The position numbers and the translations under genes were made by a program. The notes below the pieces were generated by a model. It was given only the letters and a program-made list of their open reading frames with translations. It was not told the DNA's origin and did no database searches. Of a stretch of 12,626 bases of DNA, positions 1 through 12,479 are shown in pieces. Numbering within the stretch: the first letter of the stretch is position 1; each line of letters opens with the position of its first letter. The DNA is taken from the IMG/VR virus record IMGVR_UViG_2695420456_000020; one strand, 5' to 3'. This stretch comes from a virus (taxonomy: Duplodnaviria > Heunggongvirae > Uroviricota > Caudoviricetes).

Positions 1-669
<669 letters not shown>

Positions 670-866: not shown

Positions 867-1340
867 TTAGTGATGTTTTGGCTGCACCGCAACATACATT
901 TCGATATCCCAGTACCCATCTTCCGCGCCATTGTTCAAATAAACCTCGAAGCAGGGCTTTGGTAACATTTCATAAGCACTGTCCTGCAAGAGACTATTAA
1001 AGAACTGATACCAGGGTTTAGCAAAATCATCACCGACTACACGAGCTACCGCCACCGCATACTGACCACCTGTAATTTCTGTCAGAATGACGCCCTCACT
1101 GTTTTCGGGAAGCGTAAAGTAACCCGGCACCGTCACGACGGTGTCGCAGCGTAATTTTTCGGCGGGTGTTTCATCTGGATTGTCGTAATAGACAGCAACC
1201 CACTCCTTCGGCACAATATTTTTGCTATCTACCCACATCATCAACTGCTCAAAGCCTTTCTTTACCGTCTGTTCCCACGGGCCAACGAGATGGAAACCTG
1301 CAACGGTACGTTTCTCTTCCTGCTTAATCTCGTAGTTCAT
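867..1340 (-). CDS. sbmC: DNA gyrase inhibitor SbmC/GyrI (157 aa)
   Basis: ATG at 1338-1340 preceded by GGAGG (4 nt spacer); stop at 867-869. Translation [30 protein letters not shown]... matches E. coli SbmC as I recall it. Confidence 0.93.
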
Positions 1341-1458: not shown

Positions 1459-2625
1459 TCAGGCCTTATGGTGGAAATAATCACTCAGGCGAGAAAACAT
1501 GCTGCCTTCCCCGACAGATTCCAGGGTAACCAGCGGCCAGTGCGCCACCTGTTTATCACGGTCGTAAAGTTCAATTTCCCCTACCCGCTGATGGGCGCTA
1601 ATTGGCGCGGTGAGTTCTTTACCATCAAGGGTATATTTGGCTTTGATATGTGGAATTTCGGCTTTCGGTAGCACCATCCAGAACTCTTGTTCCGTTCCCA
1701 GGTCGATATTTTCTTTATCGCCATACCAGATGCGTTCCGTTCCGACCTTTTTCCCACGGTGCAAAATTTGCACCGTAGTAAAGTTTTGTTGCCCCCAACG
1801 CAGTAATTTTCTTGCCTCTTCCTCACGACCTTTTGCACTGTCAGCCCCCATTACCACTGCAATGAGACGACGCTGCCCATCTACAGCCGAAGCAATGAGA
1901 TTAAACCCGGCACCAGAAGTATGACCCGTTTTCAGGCCGTCAACATTCATGGTTTTATCCCACAACAACCCGTTACGGTTTTGCTGGGTGATACCGTTCC
2001 AGGTGAGACTTTTCTCACTGTACATATGATAAAACTCGGGCTCGCCGTGGATGATAGCACGAGAAAGCACAGCTAAATCATAAGCCGAGCTATGCTGGCC
2101 AGGTGCATCCAGACCATGCACTGTTTCAAAATGCGTATCCTTGAGATGCAGCTTCTCGGCATAGTTGTTCATCATTTCAACAAACTGCCGTTGCCCACCG
2201 GCAATATAGTCAGCCAGAGCAACACAAGCGTCATTTCCGGAATCCACAATTAAACCACGGCTTAAATCACGTACCGATACGCGATCGCCCTCTTTCAAAA
2301 ACATCAGTGAAGAACCGACAAACACCGGATTATCTTTCGCCCACGCATCGCGCCCCACGGTGACAATATCGTCTGGCGTAATGCGATGACTATCGATAGC
2401 GCGATCCACGACATAACCCGTCATCAGCTTTGTCAGGCTGGCGGGATTGCGCTGTTGATGCTCATTACCCGCGGTGAGGATCTGACCGGTGGTGTAATCC
2501 ATCAATACCCAGGACCCGGCATGAATCTCTGGAGGCTGAGGTGAAAAAGGAATGTTTTCCGCCGCAAAACCAGACGATAAGTTAAAAACGAACAAAGAAG
2601 CAGCAATAATAAGACGGCGTTTCAA
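1459..2625 (-). CDS. dacD: D-alanyl-D-alanine carboxypeptidase DacD (PBP6b), 388 aa
   Basis: Translation contains a signal peptide (KRRLIIAASLFVFNLSSGFA) and the SxxK (SLTK), SGN and KTG motifs of class-C PBPs. Likely TTG start at 2623-2625 (giving the MKRRLII N-terminus) with a GAGG-type SD 8 nt upstream; the six-frame track extends to a second TTG at 2631. Confidence 0.93.
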   Translation of the reverse strand: MKRRLIIAASLFVFNLSSGFAAENIPFSPQPPEIHAGSWVLMDYTTGQILTAGNEHQQRNPASLTKLMTGYVVDRAIDSHRITPDDIVTVGRDAWAKDNPVFVGSSLMFLKEGDRVSVRDLSRGLIVDSGNDACVALADYIAGGQRQFVEMMNNYAEKLHLKDTHFETVHGLDAPGQHSSAYDLAVLSRAIIHGEPEFYHMYSEKSLTWNGITQQNRNGLLWDKTMNVDGLKTGHTSGAGFNLIASAVDGQRRLIAVVMGADSAKGREEEARKLLRWGQQNFTTVQILHRGKKVGTERIWYGDKENIDLGTEQEFWMVLPKAEIPHIKAKYTLDGKELTAPISAHQRVGEIELYDRDKQVAHWPLVTLESVGEGSMFSRLSDYFHHKA

Positions 2626-2833
2626 CAGCAAACCCTCAGGAGTTTCAAATAGCTGTTCTTTTTACGGAAATACTTATGAACTGGCTGGAATAAAGTGCAA
2701 GAAAATGTGACTACCCTCTCATTTTTATCTGACATGATCTGTTGCCACTCGCTGCCAAATTGTGGCGCTAAAGCTGATTAGCACGGTGATATTTGATACT
2801 CTGGCAGACAGCAGAAATAACGGATTTAACCTA

Positions 2834-3422: not shown

Positions 3423-5654
3423 TTAAATGGAAATCCTTGCGCTTATATACGCGCTATTTCTTATTTCAGGCTGCTTATTGGATGGATTTAAATTCATAGA
3501 TACACCATTTGTTCCAGTAATTATATTAAGTGTTCCTGATGACAAATCTATTGATGTAGCGGTGATTCCCACAGACTCAGTTGGAGATATATATGCTACA
3601 TTCAATTGTTCAGAACCTGTTATTTTTGAGCGTTCATTAGATATAAAAAAATCCACCTTAGCCCCACTTGTTTCACTTCCATTTTTCTTCAAATTGAACG
3701 TTGACTTGTAAATATTTCCTCTGTATACCTGCCTTCTATATTGACCATTTATTGACACTGGTTGATTGAAATTTGTCATATCAGAAATTGGGTACGTTTC
3801 ATACATATGCGCCCCTTGCGTGCCTATAAATGTTTGGTTAAATCTACCATGAGAGCCTGATACAACTATCATGTCATATCCTTCAATCCACCCTTCTTTG
3901 TGATTTATTGCATATCTAGGAATATCTCCAAAGAAAGCATTTCCATTAATATGGATTGATGACGCCTTATCAATGCTGGAAGGTTCAGGGGTGATTAGTA
4001 TCAACGAAATAACTGAAGATGATACGTCAGGTGTTGCACCACATGTTCTAGAGATATTGTTATCACTTACCTTAGCACTACCATTTTTCCAAACTGATAT
4101 CACCGAACACCCTGAAGAAAATTCATTATCAGAATATATCTCAACTATATTATCACTACATACAACAGATCGCCAACCAGCAACAACAACACCTTGAACA
4201 AATGTTCCAGATGAAGGCGATGTTAGAAAGAATTTATTTCCTATTATTGTTACATCATCATGAGGAAACTTCGTTCCAGTATAATTACCATTAGTCCCAA
4301 ACCATGCACCAATCCTAGCATAACCTCTTATAATATTATTACTAAAAGAAATACCAATAAGTTTTTCGTTATTCCCAAGACAATAAAGATTAACACCTCT
4401 TGAATTTATATTATTTGTTAGTATTTGATTGTTATTTATGCTCAAATTGATAATGGTAGCTGTTGTTGAGTTACAACCAATAACTGATGAGTCTTGAAAA
4501 TATGCCCCATCAAGTATGTTATCAGAAATAATAATATTTCTATATACTCCCCCAGCATGTCCTATTTCAATTTGCAAATTTGAGCTTTTGTTTTGAAGTT
4601 TATTTCCGCTAATAATTATATTTGTGCTAGGTGTGCCATCAACTTTAATTCCAAGTATTGCGTTTGGTTGAGCGGAATCAATCTGTATATCACAATTCCA
4701 CGTAATATGGTCCACCTCCATATCACACGACCCGTGACAGTCTTTGACTGTTACATCGGTTGATCCTGCAATATCAACAAAATGTTGATCATGTCTCCCT
4801 TGCTCCACTCTCTCTATAGTTACATTTTTGCTATGACCTAAACCGATTAAATCACCATAATCCCTTGTTGGGGTTGCGCTACCGTCAGTGATTGTAAAAT
4901 CTCTAAAAACAATATTGCCGGCAGCTCCATAGCCAGTTCTAGTATCATAATATTTATTTGTTATCAAGACACCATCCATCCCCCTCTCAGTGGGTAGTCT
5001 CTGAATGATGGTAGATCCAGCACCAGCCCCACAGAAAGTTACGTTAGCGGGAACTCTAATGCATGAATAATTATGACCTGATTTTTCAATGCTGACGTAA
5101 TATTTACCTGGAGGAAGATAAATAATCCCACCACCTAGAGACTCAAGATAGTCCAATGCAGAGTTAATTGCTATTGTTGAATCATTTGACTTTCCAGATT
5201 CACCAAACATTTGTGGTGTAACTACAATAAAAGAATCAATCAACTGCTGAATTGTTAGTCCAGACGAAGTACCAACATGCCCCGCACCATAATTTGACTC
5301 TATTATTGTTCTAAACTGATCAGGGTCATACTTCAGCACATTAGGAAAATAGAACTGCTGCGCACCGTATGCATCATAAACAGCCATTGAATGGCCTTGC
5401 ACAGTTACGAACTTGGCAATCTGTCCGTTATATACAGGATACCCGCCAGAGTTAATGATGATTGGCTGTGCAACAGGAACGTGAGAGCCGTCTTCGTTCT
5501 CCACATAAACCTGAATCTGGTTTTCAGGGTTTACCGGGTCAGTGTCAATTTTACCGATATAAATTTTGCCATTAGCTACGGCTTTAAAAGAACGCGCCAT
5601 AGTGAAGAGTTGCGAAGGCATCCCAATTACAACATTTGGAGTTATATCAGGCAT
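3423..5654 (-). CDS. Tailspike protein (743 aa): P22-gp9-like head-binding N-domain fused to a pectate-lyase-like right-handed beta-helix receptor-binding domain
   Basis: Start ATG at 5652-5654 with AGGA 8 nt upstream. N-terminus [43 protein letters not shown]...[10 protein letters not shown] aligns with the P22 tailspike head-binding domain ([43 protein letters not shown]...). After about residue 113 the sequence has a pectate-lyase-3-type start ([30 protein letters not shown]) and repeated N/D-x-I beta-helix rungs. The track ORF begins at an upstream TTG (5807), which I treat as non-coding. Confidence 0.9.
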
Positions 5655-6065
5655 ATTAGTCATCCTGTTTGAAAATTTAGATATTGAAGAAAACGGAATG
5701 ACTGCAGACAAAGATGCAATTGTTTTGAAAAATAATCTTCTATTCACTTTAAAACCATGCAATATGAACAAAATAATTATTTTACAACAGACAAGAATCT
5801 TGATCAACAGACATATGCTTTATGCGTTTAATGCGTCACTTAAAAATAACAAGTACTACTTTTATTCCTATCGTCCATGATTTTCATTTTCAAATATTAT
5901 TAAATAACAATTCCTATTTATAATATCTGTCATTTAATTTGCTCCAGATACAAGGAATCGCCGCAGCATGGCTACGGTTGGTATTTGTTTGGTTTTTGAA
6001 CTACGAAAATTTCGTAGTGCTATCCATCAAGGCCATCGCCGCTTAGTTGCTGCGGTGAATTTTGG

Positions 6066-6110: not shown

Positions 6111-7046
6111 TCAGTAGTTATGTACTGAAGGAGGTAATTCTTTATTCTTAAGTCTCATCCATGCGGAAAGATTCGTTGGTCCGTCTGGCTCATTGATATC
6201 AACATCTCGTGTGTGATTGATTAAAACGTCTCTCGCCATATCGATAATACGGGAGAACTCATAACCGCAGTCATGACATCTTCCTGAATAGTTCGATTGA
6301 ATTTGTTTCAGCGCCGGATACAGTTCGCGGAATAATGCCTGTGAGCGGTTGGCATAATCCCATAACCATACAAGGCTGTTTGCTTCTTTTGCAGAAAGCT
6401 CGTTTGCTTTCTTCTCTTGTTTGCCGATGAACTCACCTTCAAGTGGAACTCGAGCTGCAAGTGACAGTGCTTCGGTAAACTGCTCCTCACTGATTTCTTT
6501 GTACGAACATCCAAAATGGGATTTAAGTGACGACCACATGGTGATCATCGCCTTAGCCTGTTTTTCTTTTGGCAGATACTGACCGCGACTCATGACGAGT
6601 TGTTTAATGGCTTCCTGCTGTTCAGTGGTGATTTTACCCGGCAACGCTTTTTTAGCTTTGCGTGGGTTAACTACATGGCCTTTAGTCCAGTAGTCATGCA
6701 GCACGCTAAAGCATTCCTCCTGGTACTGAATCAGTTTATCGCGGATGTCAGCTCGAACTTTCTCAGGGTTGATGCTGAACAGCCATCCATTTAACTTCTT
6801 CAAAGGAAGGCAGAGTAGCTTACGAAGCTTCCCATCAGCGGCAACCATATTCATATGAATACAGTTGAACTTATCTAGTTGTTTCATAAGTTTTTGTTGC
6901 TGAGTACCCCAACTCATTCCAAGGTTTTCAACGATTGGCTTCATCGCAACGTATGCAACTCCGGCAGCCATGGCGGTGATAATTTGCTGACCGTTGAATG
7001 GTACGTAAGAGGTGTTCACTGCTTCTAAAATTGCTATACTATTCAT
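6111..7046 (-). CDS. ant: Antirepressor Ant (311 aa), P22 Ant-like
   Basis: ATG at 7044-7046 with GGAG 10 nt upstream. Translation [43 protein letters not shown]... matches P22 antirepressor as recalled, and the gene sits immediately downstream of arc. The track ORF extends upstream to 7112, which I treat as non-coding. Confidence 0.88.
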
Positions 7047-7115
7047 GTTGGTTTTTCTCCACGGATTTACTGACAACCGAAGCCCTGACTGTTCCCGCAG
7101 TTGGGGCTTCAACTT
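7047..7115 (+). ncRNA. sar: Candidate sar-like antisense RNA (antisense to the ant ribosome-binding site and arc-ant spacer); ends approximate
   Basis: P22 makes a ~69-nt antisense RNA from a promoter inside the 5' end of ant, reading toward arc. Here a plus-strand -10-like TATACT (7035-7040) lies just inside ant, and a stem gaagccc (7079-7085) / gggcttc (7104-7110) lies in the arc-ant spacer. Inferred from position only; the 3' T-tract is weak. Confidence 0.35.
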
Positions 7116-7276
7116 TACGCGCCAATGCGCCCTTCCTTCTTAAAGCTTTCCATTACTCTCTGATAAATCTCAGAGTTAACAGACCGACCATTCTCTTCCG
7201 CCACCTTGCGTACCAAATCCAATACTTCTTTAGGCCACCGCAAATTGAACTGCGGCATCTTGCTCATTCCTTTCAT
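7115..7276 (-). CDS. arc: Arc repressor (53 aa, ribbon-helix-helix)
   Basis: Translation [53 protein letters not shown] is near-identical to P22 Arc as recalled. ATG at 7274-7276 with GAGGTG 3 nt upstream; stop at 7115-7117. Confidence 0.95.
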
Positions 7277-7290
7277 ATTCACCTCACAAT

Positions 7291-7311
7291 ATAGGTCCAC
7301 CGTGGACCTAT
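7291..7311. promoter_or_regulatory. Mnt operator (Omnt): perfect palindrome ataggtccaccgtggacctat
   Basis: Perfect 10-bp arms around a central C, identical to the P22 mnt operator core (AGGTCCACGGTGGACCT on the other strand), lying between the Pant -10 and the arc start. Confidence 0.9.
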
Positions 7312-7339
7312 TGAGAATATAGTAGAGTGCTTCTATCAT
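7311..7339 (+). promoter_or_regulatory. Candidate Pmnt promoter (-35 TTGAGA 7311-7316, 17-bp spacer, -10 TATCAT 7334-7339), overlapping and divergent from Pant
   Basis: Hexamers with correct spacing read directly from the plus strand, 28 bp upstream of the mnt ATG; P22 has overlapping divergent Pant/Pmnt promoters. Confidence 0.6.
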
Positions 7340-7344
7340 GTCAA
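7316..7344 (-). promoter_or_regulatory. Pant promoter (-35 TTGACA, 17-bp spacer, -10 TATATT on the minus strand) with the Arc operator (7319-7339) embedded in the spacer
   Basis: Minus strand reads TTGACA (rc of 7339-7344), 17 bp, TATATT (rc of 7316-7321). The sequence between them, ATGATAGAAGCACTCTACTAT (rc of 7319-7339), equals the P22 arc operator as recalled. Confidence 0.85.
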
Positions 7345-7366
7345 TACACTAACTTGGAGTGATGGC

Positions 7367-7621
7367 ATGGCTAGAGATGATCCGCACTTTAACTTCCGTA
7401 TGCCTATGGAAGTAAGGGAGAAATTAAAATTCAGGGCGGAGGCGAATGGGAGATCAATGAACTCCGAGTTGTTACAAATCGTCCAAGATGCTCTATCAAA
7501 ACCATCGCCTGTGACTGGCTATCGCGACGAAGCTGAACGCTTGGCTGATCAGCAGGCAGAGCAGTTCAAGACTGTTGTGTTTGAGACACTTAAAAAGATT
7601 TATGGCAAGGATGATAAATAA
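7367..7621 (+). CDS. mnt: Mnt repressor (84 aa, ribbon-helix-helix; maintenance of ant repression)
   Basis: Translation MARDDPHFNFRMPMEVREKLKFRAEANGRSMNSELLQIVQDALSKPSPVTGYR... matches P22 Mnt as recalled. ATG at 7367 with GGAG 7 nt upstream; stop TAA at 7619-7621. Confidence 0.95.
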   Translation: MARDDPHFNFRMPMEVREKLKFRAEANGRSMNSELLQIVQDALSKPSPVTGYRDEAERLADQQAEQFKTVVFETLKKIYGKDDK

Positions 7622-8157
7622 TGCTGCACACAATTCATTTCTTATGCCCCGTTAACACCGCCACTGTTGGGCAACTTCAGAACCACTGTCTCACCGCATT
7701 ATCTCAAGGCGCAACTGAATTAAATATCCATATATCAAGTCAGGGAGGGGAAACTGCCGCTGGTTTTACTGCGTATAACTTTCTTAAGTCACTCCCTGTT
7801 ACCGTTAGAACTCACAACATAAGCAATGTTGAATCCATAGCTAATATCGTTTTCCTGGCTGGCTCAGAACGTTTCGCAAACCCATTATCAAGATTCCTGT
7901 TACATCCTCTATTATGGGGCTTTGCCACCCCAGCCGCCGACCATGCCAGATTGAGAGAGTACGGGAAATGCCTCGATAACGATCTTGATCGCTTCGTTGA
8001 GACGTTCAATATCGACATCGGAACCCATATTAGGTGGGCATCCCTGATAGCAGACTCGACCATTTTGGATGCTAACAAGGCTCTTGAGCATGGCATAATT
8101 AATTCCATAAAAACTGCAAGGCTGGTATCCAATCAGGCAAACTGGTGGGTTGTTTGA
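7621..8157 (+). CDS. Compact ClpP-fold (S14-like) serine peptidase, 178 aa, translationally coupled to mnt
   Basis: ATG at 7621-7623 overlaps the mnt stop (TAATG). The translation aligns by eye with ClpP: ISSQGGETAAG vs INSPGGSVTAG, Ser72 in NVESIAN vs GQAASMG, His95 in RFLLHPL vs RVMIHQP, Asp150 in ADSTILDANKALEHGIINSI. It lacks the ClpP N-terminal region. Confidence 0.75.
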   Translation: MLHTIHFLCPVNTATVGQLQNHCLTALSQGATELNIHISSQGGETAAGFTAYNFLKSLPVTVRTHNISNVESIANIVFLAGSERFANPLSRFLLHPLLWGFATPAADHARLREYGKCLDNDLDRFVETFNIDIGTHIRWASLIADSTILDANKALEHGIINSIKTARLVSNQANWWVV

Positions 8158-8234: not shown

Positions 8235-8420
8235 TTAACAGCCTCCGCGTCCACGAGTAATTCTGTCGCGGATTTGCTTCTTACGGTGGTTTAGGCTTGA
8301 TAGCTTGGCTTCTGCTTCTGATATTTGCGCATCTAGATCTTTAAGCTCAAGATCTGAAAGTCGCTGGTCAAGCAGGGTTTGATTCAACTCAATGTTGTTC
8401 AGGCGTTCTTCTATGGTCAT
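8235..8420 (-). CDS. Small coiled-coil protein (61 aa), function unknown
   Basis: ATG at 8418-8420 with AGGAG 5 nt upstream. Translation MTIEERLNNIELNQTLLDQRLSDLELKDLDAQISEAEAKLSSLNHRKKQIRDRITRGRGGC has heptad-like leucine spacing. No homolog recognised. Confidence 0.5.
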   Translation of the reverse strand: MTIEERLNNIELNQTLLDQRLSDLELKDLDAQISEAEAKLSSLNHRKKQIRDRITRGRGGC

Positions 8421-8561
8421 GATTACTCCTTGTTGAGGTTGATGTGAAACGATTGATTGTATACGCACTCTTTTGTTAGCTAGTAGCTTTGCTTAATCGC
8501 AAGATAAAGTTTCTGATTAATCCCTAAAAATCAAAAAATAAAGTTAAAACAGGTACATGAT

Positions 8562-8765
8562 ATGGAATGGATCATAGGATTTGTTGTTCTTATCTTCATA
8601 GCCAGTATGTTTAAACCAAGAAGTTGCGATATCTGTGGTGCTGGATTTAAGAAAAAGTACTTCACATGGACTATCGATGGAAAGAAACAGCATCTTTGTC
8701 CGTACTGCAACAGTAAAATGGAGAGACGCAACAGCGATAGGCGCTTTAAGGATCGATTTGGTTAA
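8562..8765 (+). CDS. Small membrane-anchored zinc-ribbon protein (67 aa), function unknown
   Basis: N-terminal hydrophobic helix (EWIIGFVVLIFIASMF) followed by CDIC...CPYC (two CxxC pairs 21 residues apart). AT-rich with rare codons (ata, aga, agg, cga). Followed by a terminator. An antisense ORF (8544-8792) has no comparable features. Confidence 0.55.
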   Translation: MEWIIGFVVLIFIASMFKPRSCDICGAGFKKKYFTWTIDGKKQHLCPYCNSKMERRNSDRRFKDRFG

Positions 8766-8780
8766 CCATTTTATCTCCAA

Positions 8781-8814
8781 CAAAAAACCCACCTGACGGT
8801 GGGTTTCATTTCTT
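8781..8814. terminator. Bidirectional rho-independent terminator between the convergent zinc-ribbon and lipoprotein genes
   Basis: Stem cccacc (8788-8793) / ggtggg (8798-8803), loop tgac, flanked by AAAAAA (8782-8787) and TTTCATTTCTT (8804-8814), so a T-tract follows the hairpin on either strand. Confidence 0.75.
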
Positions 8815-9232
8815 AATCTTGCTTTGTAGACGGTATAAGGGATGCGTTTGCCTCTTTTGGCTTCAAGGTATACATCCCACCATTAAATGGATCAACAGCA
8901 AGCCAACCAATTAACCCACCAAACACAAGGTTTCCACCAATATACCAACCATTAGCATTGGCTTTGATTGGCAGGGTAACTGGTTCGTACCCATCCTTTT
9001 CCATAGTGATCTGGTAACTCTTTTTGCCAAAATAACTACCATCTGACTTGGCAAGAGTTACTCCTTGTGGGGTCTTACCTTGCGCAACAATCACGCCTGA
9101 TTCGTCTTTTACCTTAAAGCTCGCACCGGAAGGATTGCTGTTCACTTGCACAAGCTGTGTTTCGTCACCAACAATAGTTGCGCACCCAGATAACATGATA
9201 GCGCCAGCAACGACGCCAATAATCCTCTTCAT
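8813..9232 (-). CDS. PEGA-domain lipoprotein (139 aa)
   Basis: MKRIIGVVAGAIMLSGC signal peptide with lipobox LSGC (Ala at +2). PEGA-like motif VQVNSNPSGASFKVKDESGVIVAQGKTPQGVTLAKSDG ... MEKDGYEPV. Start taken at ATG 9230-9232 (weak GGAA SD); the track ORF begins 4 codons upstream. A candidate sigma70 promoter (TTCACA-17-TAGGAT, minus strand, 9263-9291) precedes it. Confidence 0.72.
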   Translation of the reverse strand: MKRIIGVVAGAIMLSGCATIVGDETQLVQVNSNPSGASFKVKDESGVIVAQGKTPQGVTLAKSDGSYFGKKSYQITMEKDGYEPVTLPIKANANGWYIGGNLVFGGLIGWLAVDPFNGGMYTLKPKEANASLIPSTKQD

Positions 9233-9327
9233 ATCAATTTCCATATCTAAAAAACCGGAAACATCCTAATGACAAACTATTCAAATGTGAAGCACGAGAT
9301 AAGATCAATCCATCCGTGGACGACTAA

Positions 9328-11496
9328 TTACTCCTGTGTCATTCCGCTTAGCGATGCCACAATCCCAGCCCTCGACAAACGCTGGAACTCTTCGTTTCCT
9401 AGTGCATCGCGAATTGCTTTTACGGCGGCCTTATTTGCCATAAATCTGCGTTCCGCCGCCGCTAATGCGCCATCACTTGCCCCAACCTTAACTGCCTTTG
9501 TTGCCTCTTGAACAGCCTTTTCAATAGCGTAACGACCACTTCTGGTTGCGGATAATTTCGCTATCGATCCTTTTGCTATCGCATCAATTGCTCCACCAGC
9601 AGCGCCACCCACTATTGCTCCAATAACACCTCCTCCAGAGAACCCTGCGATAGCGCCAGCGGTTGGAAAAGCGCCAGACAATACGCTCTCTAAAACTGGA
9701 TGAAGGCCATTCTCAAGAGTGCTAATGGCTGGCATAGAGCGCCCTGTTTGTTCAACATATCGAAGTGGCTTTGTTGCAGCTCTTGCAAGTTCTCCGTATG
9801 AACTTGTAATCCTGCCAAGTTCTGGAGAATATCGACTAATTGCCTTCACGTTTTGTGGGGTAAGAATAGTCGCGATATGCTTAATTCCAGCTCCTTCAGA
9901 CTTACCTCCGCGTACCCCTTGCGATACCGCATCTTGTAATATTGATGCAATTGCTGGCGCGCGTTCCGATTCAGGTAGGGCGCTTATTATTTTATGGAAC
10001 TGACCTGTTCCACTTTTTGCTGAACCCTGTAACGCCTTAGATCCATTAGTTACCAACTGATCAGTTGCAAGGTCTCTACCAAACGCTGCTTCAGCCTGTT
10101 CTTGTGCTGTAAATCTTGCCTTTGACAGATCATTAGCTTTTTGCCAGTCATCAAGAAAACCGCCATTTTGAGCCATTATGCGCATATCTTCCGTTGCTGC
10201 ATCACGAAGCTCAGCCATGCGCCTTGCCGTATTTGCCTCACCAGACCTTATATACTTCTGCTCTGCGTCAGCAAGTTTACTTCGCCATGCCTTCATGGCA
10301 TCAAACGTGATTCCTTTTTTACCAGTTTTAGCATAAGCAGATGCGAATTGTTTCATCTCAGGAGTTAGCGGCATGCCAGCCAAAATATCACCCTGAATTG
10401 TAGCGTTCAGGTTTGACATTCTGGCCTTTGCGTCAGGCATCGTGGAGCGGACGCTATCCCATGCGGCCTTTTCTGAATTTTTCATTTTATCAATACTTGC
10501 CAAAACCCTTTGTTTTATGGCTGCACTTTTTTCTGATGCAGTTCCTGCTTCAGCCCCAAACTCATCCAATGCTGAGTTAAATTTCGACTCTATTTCACTG
10601 AATGCTTTGGTGTGTGCATCCTGTGTAATTCCGGGCTTTGACGCCAGAATCCCCTCCGCCTGAGCAAGACCACGACTACCTGATCTCATGCCAGGAGTTA
10701 ATGCGTTGATATCTATTCCAGCAGTATCTGCTGCTTTTGCTATTTCGTCTGACACATTAGCTGACTGTCTGGCAATAATCTCTCTTCCTGTACCAGACTT
10801 TGCCATTTTCGAAACATCAGCAGCGGAATTTATTGCCCCGCCACCAAGAACTTGAGGTGATTTAGAGGTTAAGATCCTTCCAGCCCCAGAAAGTATCCCC
10901 TGAGCACCAATATTGATACCACCATTAATGGCAGCATTTTGTGCAAAATCGCCCTCCTGATTTGCAGCATCAGCAAGAGAACCTGCAATCATGTTTCCTG
11001 CGGAACCGATGTCTCCTGCGAGCTTTGCTGTCGCTCCAGCAGCTTTTGCCGCTGTGCCAATTGGCAGGAGATACCCCCCAAATGTTTCACCGGCTTGCGC
11101 CCAAGGGTCTGTCGGTCGATCGACAGGGCGATAAACATCATCCAAAACCTTGGGGCCACCAAGCCCCTGGCTGATTGCATTAATCAGACTTGCGCCACCC
11201 TGCAATACGTCAAATGGTATATTTACCAGACCACGACCAGCCTGTTCTGCAATTTGCCCTGCACTTTGACCACCTGTGAGCCAATCACCAGCTTGTTGCA
11301 TCAATGATGGTTCTTCTTTCTGCTGCTGAGGCGGAGGGTATGCTGCATAAAACTGATCTCTTGCTTCAGCCCATTTGTCACCAGCCTTAGGGGCAACAAC
11401 CTCATCAAAATATTGCGCTTGAGCCTGTGCTTTCTGTTCTTCAGTTAACGCCTGATACTGTGGAGAGGCGATAACATCTTTCCATGCTTTAGCCAT
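9328..11496 (-). CDS. Putative DNA-ejection (internal virion) protein, 722 aa, Ala/Gly/Gln-rich; P22 gp16-position
   Basis: Long ORF whose start overlaps the upstream stop (TAATG at 11494-11498). Composition is low-complexity A/G/Q/E/K-rich with a glycine-zipper segment ([31 protein letters not shown]). Function inferred from position relative to immI/tailspike; no direct homology recalled. Confidence 0.65.
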
Positions 11497-12479
11497 TAAT
11501 CACCCCATAAAGACGAGAAACCGGACTCATTGCTGTCGCTTCCTGATTTTCGCTCACTAACATATGTGTCATAACCTGATGAACTATATCCCATTGATTC
11601 AGCCTCCCTTGCTGCAACCTTTTGAAATACATAATATTGCGATCGGATTTCAGATAACTGTTTTCTGACGACCTCTTCAGGCTGTGTTATATCGAGTTTC
11701 GCGATCAGGTTTTCCAGTTTTTGTCCTTCAGCATTGGAGAGACTACCCATACCTCGCATAGTCTGCACGTTCTGGACAAACGCACCAGACTTTAATTCTT
11801 CTATCGCATTACGGTTTGCAATCCCTTCAGCACTTGTGAAGCCATCTATATTTCTTCCTTCGAAGCGACCGATACCTTCAAGCTCCTTCTTACCAAGCAA
11901 AGAATCAATTTTCTCTATCCCTCGCTCACCAGTAATCAACGCATTGTTGTAATTATTGTTGCCATCAAGCCATCTCTTAGCCTGAGACATTCTGGCTGAC
12001 GTTGCAGCTTTACCGGTTAGAGGATCAATTCCTGTCGCTGCTATCTGTGAGTTAAGAGACAAAACATCCATATCCTGAAGTTGTCCTGCTCTTTCAATGG
12101 CCGCCTGTGACTGCTTAAACACATACTTGTCGTGATTCAGTCTTGCCATTTGAGCCTTATAGGAAAGATCCTGCCCCCTAATAGCCCTCGCATTCGTCAT
12201 GTCATTATTGCGAATGGTTTCGTTAATTCTTTGCTGCTCCTGCTGGCGACCAACCATCTTATCCTGAACAGCAAACGCCTTTTCTGGCCCAAGCGCACCG
12301 AGAGACATAGTAGTCAGCATGTGTGATAGCTGCTCTGGATTCTGGATACCTGTCTGAATCATCCAGTCAGCATTCGCACCCACACGATTTAACCTGTCCT
12401 TGTTGTCAGTAATGAATTTACTGTAGGCTTCCGGCCCCTGAGAAAGAGCGACGTTAGCCCTCATGGCTAAATCGCCCAT
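11496..12479 (-). CDS. Putative DNA-ejection protein, 327 aa; P22 gp20-position
   Basis: ORF tightly coupled to the downstream 722-aa gene; Q/N/R-rich, coiled-coil-like. ATG at 12477-12479 has no clear SD (alternative ATG at 12462-12464). An in-frame stop at 12552-12554 excludes a longer N-terminus. Confidence 0.6.

Follow-up and report, generated by a model that had tools for sequence, protein, structure and literature searches.

Locus organization and gene identity

The window, a 12,626-nt stretch of viral DNA (IMG/VR record IMGVR_UViG_2695420456_000020), makes up the right arm of an E. coli prophage of the P22-like (Lederbergvirus) type, which abuts the chromosomal genes dacD and sbmC (Table 1). 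Its focal gene is a minus-strand ORF, running from an ATG at 9232-9230 to a TAA stop at 8815-8813. A reading made earlier from the sequence alone had taken this gene to be prophage-encoded, as it indeed is. Its boundaries of 8813-9232 are exact for the 139-aa CDS, with the strand, previously unstated, being minus, and the gap behind the upstream late gene, given as 95 bp, is exactly that when measured to the stop of the gp16 homolog at 9328. An in-frame ATG lies further upstream at 9244 but has no Shine-Dalgarno sequence, whereas the start at 9232 has GGAAA 6-10 nt upstream and is also the one chosen in phage epsilon34 and by PGAP.

Table 1. Features of the window and segments of the encoded lipoprotein (nucleotide positions unless given as aa)
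Feature	Position	Strand	Remarks
sbmC	867-1340	-	Chromosomal, beside prophage
dacD	1459-2631	-	Chromosomal, beside prophage
Tailspike gene	3423-5807	-	
mnt/arc/sar/ant immunity-I region	6111-7621		Within a variable set of small genes
sar RNA	7047-7114		Rfam, 95.6 bits
mnt-like repressor gene and ClpP-like gene	7367-8157	+	
77-aa coiled-coil ORF	8235-8468	-	
67-aa ORF	8562-8765	+	Convergent with lipoprotein gene
Rho-independent terminator, bidirectional	8777-8807	.	Common to lipoprotein gene and convergent 67-aa ORF
Lipoprotein CDS, 139 aa	8813-9232	-	Translation; phrog_6823; identity to epsilon34 gp15
Signal peptide, codons 1-16	9232-9185	-	
Cys17, predicted lipidated	9184-9182	-	
5' leader	9233-9262	-	Shine-Dalgarno GGAAA 9242-9238; conserved GTTTCC 9262-9257
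Promoter-like element	9263-9291	-	-35 TTCACA 9291-9286; 17-nt spacer; -10 TAGGAT 9268-9263
gp16 homolog, ejection-protein gene	9328-11496	-	Upstream late gene
gp20 homolog, ejection-protein gene	11496-12479	-	
Beta-sandwich	aa ~25-93		AF2 model
Gly/Trp-rich hydrophobic segment	aa 95-112		AF2 model
C-terminal strands	aa 121-131		AF2 model

The gene is not new, having already been catalogued as the hypothetical gene 15 of Salmonella phage epsilon34: the window protein is 98.6% identical to epsilon34 gp15 (YP_002533474) over all 139 residues, with a range of 98.6-99.3% when the hypothetical proteins of Escherichia phages Gally and vB_EcoP-720R6 are included, and phrog_6823 (unknown function) matches residues 1-139 of 139 with E = 3.6e-86. 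A 2008 description of epsilon34 placed gene 15 in the 'ant moron' and gave it no function (PMC2629481), and a literature search found no functional study of epsilon34 gp15, of prophage PEGA lipoproteins or of lipoprotein exclusion morons. In epsilon34 it likewise lies between the gp16 homolog and mnt and ends at the same terminator; however, a hkcB-like gene separates it there from gene 16 and mnt follows it directly, whereas the window has three extra small genes and the ClpP-like gene between the lipoprotein gene and mnt.

Several of these neighboring genes have features of their own. The 67-aa ORF combines an N-terminal hydrophobic helix with a CxxC...CxxC zinc ribbon; its family matches are weak only, and its DNA recurs, unannotated, in other E. 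coli genomes that do not have the lipoprotein gene. The 77-aa ORF matches phrog_7586 (unknown function; E = 1e-43), and some of the lipoprotein-bearing P22-like contigs contain ORFs of this type. The mnt-like repressor gene (Arc and Repressor_Mnt domains) overlaps by ATGA a gene coding for a ClpP-like serine protease of 178 aa (Pfam CLP_protease, 4e-12). Such an Arc-family and ClpP-like pair also adjoins a Bro-N/P22_AR_C antirepressor gene in unrelated siphophage-type prophages of E. coli (loci L003, L004 and L007), and no explanation offers itself for the joint transcription of a protease and an immunity-I repressor.

Flanking control elements

The terminator consists of a hairpin at 8784-8807 and a U-tract (UUUUUUGUU), which as minus-strand RNA folds with a dG of -16.2 kcal/mol (z = -3.6). 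The G+C core of the hairpin begins 10 nt after the stop codon, exactly where a strong terminator had previously been proposed. A scan also matched it on the plus strand, its counterpart in epsilon34 carries the annotation of a terminator, and every phage-borne homolog examined has a terminator of its own.

On the upstream side, the sequence-only reading had suggested a sigma70-like promoter. Such a site is present in the gap and its -10 is conserved. TTCACA-17-TAGGAT is a weak consensus match (9/12) and the consensus scan taken alone is at chance, with 4 sites found against 3.2 expected. It is the phylogenetic footprint, rather than the score, that supports the promoter-like element. In many divergent homologs, a -10 hexamer (TAGGAT, TAAGAT or TAATAT, often with a TGn extension) is followed by GTTTCYG at ~31-36 nt before the start codon, and this conserved -10 region was seen across P22-like, lambda-like and chromosomal contexts. 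The block of DNA shared between E. coli genomes (see below) stops at ~9292, i.e. at the -35.

A separate observation concerns the leader: the GTTTCC right after the -10 could base-pair with the Shine-Dalgarno region GGAAAT (9237-9262, minus strand). In a scripted count over 13 relatives, 12 of the 13 divergent family members, chromosomal ones included, displayed this 6-bp GTTTCC/Shine-Dalgarno complementarity, with a closing pair that varies between G.U, C-G, G-C and A-U. If transcription starts ~7 nt past TAGGAT, this anti-Shine-Dalgarno element would be absent from the cassette's own mRNA and present in read-through late transcripts, and might then act as a promoter-dependent translation switch.

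A large proteobacterial family under purifying selection

A word-indexed search recovered 726 homologs, mostly from Enterobacterales, and a profile search of 1.84 billion cluster representatives yielded 5,711 matches at E <= 1e-3 and 2,115 at E <= 1e-10. The family, with its 5,711 50%-identity clusters in Proteobacteria, is without a curated model. A genome scan further uncovered copies of 50-60% identity in Halomonas, Chromohalobacter, Pasteurellaceae, Shewanella, Gallionellaceae, Mariprofundus and others. Invariant across the family are the lipobox Cys followed by A-T/S-I-V, the motif KSDGSYFG and a segment of the form NGWYIGGN-x3-FGGLIGW-x-VDPFNGGMYTL-x-P. Against homologs at 68-80% protein identity, pS is saturated (0.69-0.88) as opposed to a pN of 0.13-0.22, and dN/dS is ~0.1 or less where computable; the gene is real and under strong purifying selection.

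Among NCBIfam models, only a weak match was obtained, to LEPBI_I2678, a Leptospira family (22.9 bits versus a cut-off of 240). A relationship to YceK/DUF1375, the JGI label on some homologs, was considered and rejected: hhalign aligned 16 columns around the lipobox with a probability of 47%, the YceK query being approximate.

Lipoprotein signal, fold and predicted location

The protein begins with the lipobox MKRIIGVVAGAIMLSG, followed by C17-A18 and thus a C-ATIVG start, and conforms to the PROSITE PS51257 rule (lipobox [LVI..][ASTG..][GAS]-C, Cys at 15-35, uncharged h-region and K/R in the n-region). The same rule holds for 103 of 120 close homologs and 110 of 150 distant representatives; of the 213 relatives that pass it, 202 have Ala at the +2 position and none has Asp. 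The LSGC lipobox and the Ala at +2, both pointed out in the sequence-only reading, are hence confirmed by rule and by homolog statistics alike. Because Ala, and not the Lol-avoidance Asp, occupies +2, the mature protein is probably sorted by the Lol pathway to the outer membrane, as far as the sorting rule goes.

A structure-prediction model, proposed earlier as a check, returned a PEGA-class beta-sandwich: the AF2 model has a pLDDT of 79.5 overall and of ~96 in the sandwich, and the C-terminal strands are likewise modeled confidently (pLDDT ~91). The mature protein is accordingly predicted to adopt a transthyretin/PEGA-like beta-sandwich. In its predicted fold it resembles the PEGA (PF08308), transthyretin-like and CarboxypepD_reg-like sandwiches, but its own PEGA match falls below the Pfam gathering threshold (17.6 bits versus 20.8, E = 0.0037). 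The PEGA-like beta-sandwich of the sequence-only reading is hence upheld by the predicted fold, by the presence of a 'PSGA' motif and by a relative, P0156, that passes the threshold with 24.3 bits, though not by the Pfam score of the window protein itself. At the level of sequence, the invariant lipobox-CATIVG start and the NGWYIGGN...VDPFNGGMY segment, both foreign to PEGA, define a separate family. A sequence search of the PDB returned only chance-level matches, to an insertion in the RNA polymerase beta' subunit, and found no solved relative.

Between the sandwich and the C-terminal strands, the Gly/Trp-rich segment of residues 95-112, flanked by Trp96 and Trp110, is modeled as a low-confidence helix (pLDDT 55-65). 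Its 19-residue Kyte-Doolittle mean is <=1.3, as against the usual cut-off of 1.6 for a transmembrane helix. From the model we infer a membrane-dipping loop, which together with the N-terminal lipid would pin the sandwich to the membrane. A Gly-rich hydrophobic stretch is also found at the C-terminus of lambda Bor.

P0142, a metagenomic representative of 365 aa, is the sole domain fusion encountered that gives a hint of a partner or location for the family: in it, the lipoprotein module (13-137) precedes an OmpA-like 8-stranded outer-membrane barrel (165-363). Many other relatives bear Pro/Ala-rich tails, and both features are consistent with a periplasm-facing location at the outer membrane.

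A mobile cassette with multiple insertion sites

At >=90% identity, the cassette DNA is found in 157 of 5,426 complete E. coli genomes (~3%). In 87 of these 157, the shared block spans ~8780-9292 and comprises the terminator, the gene and the ~60 nt before it, which hold the leader and the -35. That a unit of promoter-like element, gene and terminator travels as a cassette between phages is thus strongly supported. A PEGA-type lipoprotein in a superinfection-blocking role had earlier been regarded as unusual, an impression to be tempered, since the protein is known as that of epsilon34 gene 15 and occurs in ~3% of complete E. coli genomes. Among phage records, a homolog was detected in only 4 of 50,697 at E <= 1e-5, and P22 is without the gene.

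Within prophages, homologs are inserted at six or more different junctions. They lie in the gene 16-mnt region of P22-like prophages (80 IMG/VR loci), in HK97-like prophages of E. coli and in Proteus prophages between the tail-assembly chaperone and tape-measure genes, and in lambda-like tails at the TMP/M, K/I and I/J junctions. In Caulobacter phage DMCA, the homolog is directly downstream of the repressor gene and co-oriented with it; this member is 30% identical and retains the lipobox, a PQGA motif and the Gly-rich ...VD..TGA...LVP segment. Every copy seen in E. coli, Salmonella and Proteus is prophage-borne. With its prophage-borne insertion, its own terminator and a conserved promoter-like element, the gene is supported as a classical moron; the differing G+C of the Juhala/Hendrix definition (PMC3594210) is a trait that it does not show (0.43-0.45 versus 0.45-0.52 in gene 16, a small difference).

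Outside phages, homologs are also present on P. aeruginosa plasmids and as chromosomal orphans. The latter are 66-79% identical to the phage copy, with the same 137-aa length and all of the invariant motifs, except that the Photorhabdus copies are longer (186-188 aa) through a C-terminal extension; several of the chromosomal copies have the same promoter region as the phage copy. Their settings are diverse: in Photorhabdus they lie between rimJ and murJ, in an Erwiniaceae genome among ABC-transporter genes, in Tatumella near a gene for a LysR-family regulator, in Rosenbergiella near pgaA and in Arsenophonus near mutS. Across 80 genomes, we found no conserved chromosomal synteny pointing to a pathway.

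Functional interpretation

The anatomy given in the sequence-only reading is supported, and the role in superinfection exclusion that it raised is plausible on positional grounds. As the leading hypothesis, which we hold tentatively, we propose the following chain from cassette to exclusion. A cassette bounded by its own -35/-10 and strong terminator recombines as a unit between phages and encodes a product that carries a type II signal peptide, with the lipobox Cys invariant and Ala in the +2 position. Its mature part comprises the sandwich, then the invariant NGWYIGGN..FGGLIGW.VDPFNGGMY segment and then the high-confidence strands, and it is under strong purifying selection. Upon lipidation, it would be Lol-sorted to the inner leaflet of the outer membrane, where its lipid, together with the hydrophobic loop, would keep the sandwich lying flat on the membrane and facing the periplasm. 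In the repressed prophage the protein would be made from its own promoter, while in lytic growth antiterminated late transcription would pass through the gene toward the tailspike gene. The benefit to the lysogen would be the exclusion of superinfecting phages while DNA delivery is at its outer-membrane or periplasmic step, with an outer-membrane component or the trans-envelope conduit of ejection/tape-measure proteins, rather than one specific receptor, as the target. The parts of this chain differ in strength: cassette autonomy, type II signal, sandwich fold and purifying selection are, taken together, very probably correct, and Lol sorting to the outer membrane along with expression from the gene's own promoter in the repressed prophage is likely.

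What makes an exclusion role plausible is the position of the gene and its homologs. P22 has its sieA in the gene 16-mnt region (PMC10883804), HK97 has its gp15 exclusion moron at the chaperone/tape-measure junction (PMC3594210), and a further homolog sits in a repressor operon. The phage lipoproteins Cor and Llp are cited as precedents for exclusion factors (PMC3594210, PMC10883804). The DMCA homolog, being co-transcribed with the prophage repressor, is by position expressed in the lysogen. None of the 80 lipoprotein-carrying P22-like contigs contains a P22-type sieA, in a test that covered type A SieA only, and most P22-like phages of E. coli are without sieA anyway (PMC10883804). The resemblance to SieA and HK97 gp15 is one of genomic region: both are sequence-unrelated, helical inner-membrane proteins, in contrast to the predicted beta-sandwich lipoprotein of the window, which gave no PHROG match to SieA (phrog_7745). 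Moreover, P22 sieA is transcribed opposite to gene 16, whereas the lipoprotein gene is co-oriented with it. HK97 gp15 (YebO) has many non-phage bacterial homologs (PMC3594210), a trait shared with the lipoprotein family; gp15, however, has diverged from YebO, unlike the window lipoprotein with respect to its cellular relatives. A comparison with Cor, Llp, Bor, TraT, SieA and HK97 gp15 found no homology to any of them. It also counts against exclusion that moron slots of late operons hold genes that are not for defence, e.g. lom and bor.

The orientation of the gene brings up a function in the lytic cycle. Lying between gene 16 and the tailspike gene and co-oriented with the late operon, it and its terminator must be crossed by antiterminated late transcripts if these are to reach the tailspike gene; read-through of the P22 ant moron by late transcription has been described (PMC2629481). 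The lipoprotein could hence be made mainly from such transcripts and act late in infection, sparing new virions from envelope debris or modulating envelope breakdown, and the homologs inside the tail operon of lambda-like prophages would agree with this. T5 Llp is thought to act late in infection. A purely late gene, however, would not need a conserved promoter-like element and terminator of its own, and copies of identical architecture occur in chromosomes and behind a prophage repressor. The gene is absent from most P22-like phages and is therefore not required for lytic growth, and the conserved anti-Shine-Dalgarno pairing, should it be real, would shut off translation of read-through transcripts. 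We therefore regard a lytic function as improbable. Of the related alternative foreseen in the sequence-only reading, a last late-operon gene with a virion role, the co-orientation and the read-through toward the tailspike stand, but the secretion and lipidation signal excludes the virion role.

Cor (phi80/N15/HK022) and Llp (T5), two superinfection-exclusion factors, are likewise small phage lipoproteins, predicted or known to be in the outer membrane; Cor is expressed from the prophage independently of the structural genes and benefits the lysogen. By analogy, and along the lines of the sequence-only reading, the lipoprotein might inactivate one particular outer-membrane receptor by binding to it from the periplasmic side. 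Its small size, its phage origin and its outer-membrane sorting signal would agree with this, and the family member fused to an OmpA-like barrel hints at an association with such barrels. Yet any similarity to Cor or Llp is confined to the signal peptide (Cor, phrog_1119: residues 1-20, E = 0.0021, with a dissimilar mature protein), and the mature window protein is ~2x larger than these, with a beta-sandwich and a hydrophobic loop. Further, in contrast to Cor and Llp, it has close cellular orthologs, and its phage carriers use different receptors: the same protein (68-99% identical) is present both in podophages with O-antigen-specific tailspikes and in lambda/HK97-like siphophages of E. coli and Proteus. 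For comparison, cor travels with FhuA-dependent phages. The presence of the lipoprotein in phages with unrelated adsorption machinery makes a mask of one receptor unlikely, and the very high conservation across distant bacteria runs contrary to a host-variable target; this reading, too, thus appears to have little chance of being right.

The same conservation bears on a further explanation, which is an almost equal rival to exclusion. Here, the phage copy would retain the native function of a cellular lipoprotein family and supply it to hosts like E. coli, Salmonella and Proteus as a lysogenic-conversion envelope factor with no anti-phage role, in kind like lambda Bor/Iss; outer-membrane stabilization, stress or serum resistance and interaction with a conserved outer-membrane machine are examples of what it might do. 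That the close relatives (in Rosenbergiella, Tatumella, Erwiniaceae, Photorhabdus and Arsenophonus), which share both motifs and high identity with the phage copy, are ordinary chromosomal orphans argues for a conserved envelope function over a phage-specific receptor mask. An identity of ~55% out to Halomonas, which is unusual for proteins touching fast-evolving phage parts, suggests a housekeeping role in the envelope, and conservation across orders fits the binding of a conserved host component better than the tracking of phage parts. The breadth of the family across Proteobacteria, its occurrence on P. aeruginosa plasmids and the result with the PADLOC-DB 2.0 defence models, of which 0 families matched at E <= 0.1, point in the same direction, and the long Pro/Ala-rich, periplasm-spanning tails or the OmpA-like barrel of relatives suggest a structural envelope role. 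Lambda Bor/Iss and plasmid TraT are also mobile-element lipoproteins that alter the envelope (serum resistance, surface exclusion), but they differ in fold class from the window lipoprotein, which matched neither the Bor nor the TraT model of Pfam at E <= 0.1. Against an envelope factor stands the repeated occurrence of the gene at sites where exclusion genes are known to lie, as well as its place downstream of a phage repressor. In addition, the chromosomal neighborhood is not conserved and so indicates no pathway, and the cellular family is likewise without an assigned function, so that this explanation does not yet amount to a mechanism. We consider it a serious possibility, short of a probable one.

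Returning to exclusion as the leading hypothesis, its most specific form would have the lipoproteins captured time and again, along with promoter and terminator, by temperate podophages and siphophages to serve as a receptor-independent block from the periplasmic face of the outer membrane, closing the DNA conduit of short- and long-tailed phages alike, with the anti-Shine-Dalgarno element perhaps restricting translation to lysogeny; in this full form it is rather unlikely.

If the protein excludes phages, it would represent a new outer-membrane-based exclusion mechanism common to P22-like and lambda-like prophages, and its presence in ~3% of complete E. coli genomes would bear on host-range failures in phage therapy. 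If it is instead a general envelope factor, it would be one more ordinary lysogenic-conversion gene. The analysis also flags a conserved lipoprotein family of Proteobacteria, made up of more than 5,000 sequence clusters and lacking a curated model, to which the phage copies offer an easy genetic handle: a single gene with its own promoter that is dispensable for the phage.

Other genes in the carrier prophages

In phage Gally, the gene for gp13 (L002 5381-5896; phrog_6067, unknown function) is placed on the opposite strand, with gene 16 on one side and the PEGA-like lipoprotein gene on the other, and a gene of this type is present in at least 16 of the 80 IMG/VR loci. Its product is likewise a lipoprotein by its lipobox, MKKSLLIIPLLLAG followed by C-AKV, and contains a coiled-coil-like region rich in Gln; at this site, some P22-like prophages therefore have a pair of lipoprotein morons arranged back to back. 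The possibility that gp13 is a divergent SieA was ruled out on two counts: it lacks similarity to the SieA of P22, and it bears a lipobox. In a second group of prophages (loci L003-L006), a gene for an OmpC/NmpC-like porin (Porin_1/Porin_4) is found between the tail genes M and L, at ~12260-13425; these are the same E. coli prophages that have the lipoprotein homolog before the tape-measure gene.
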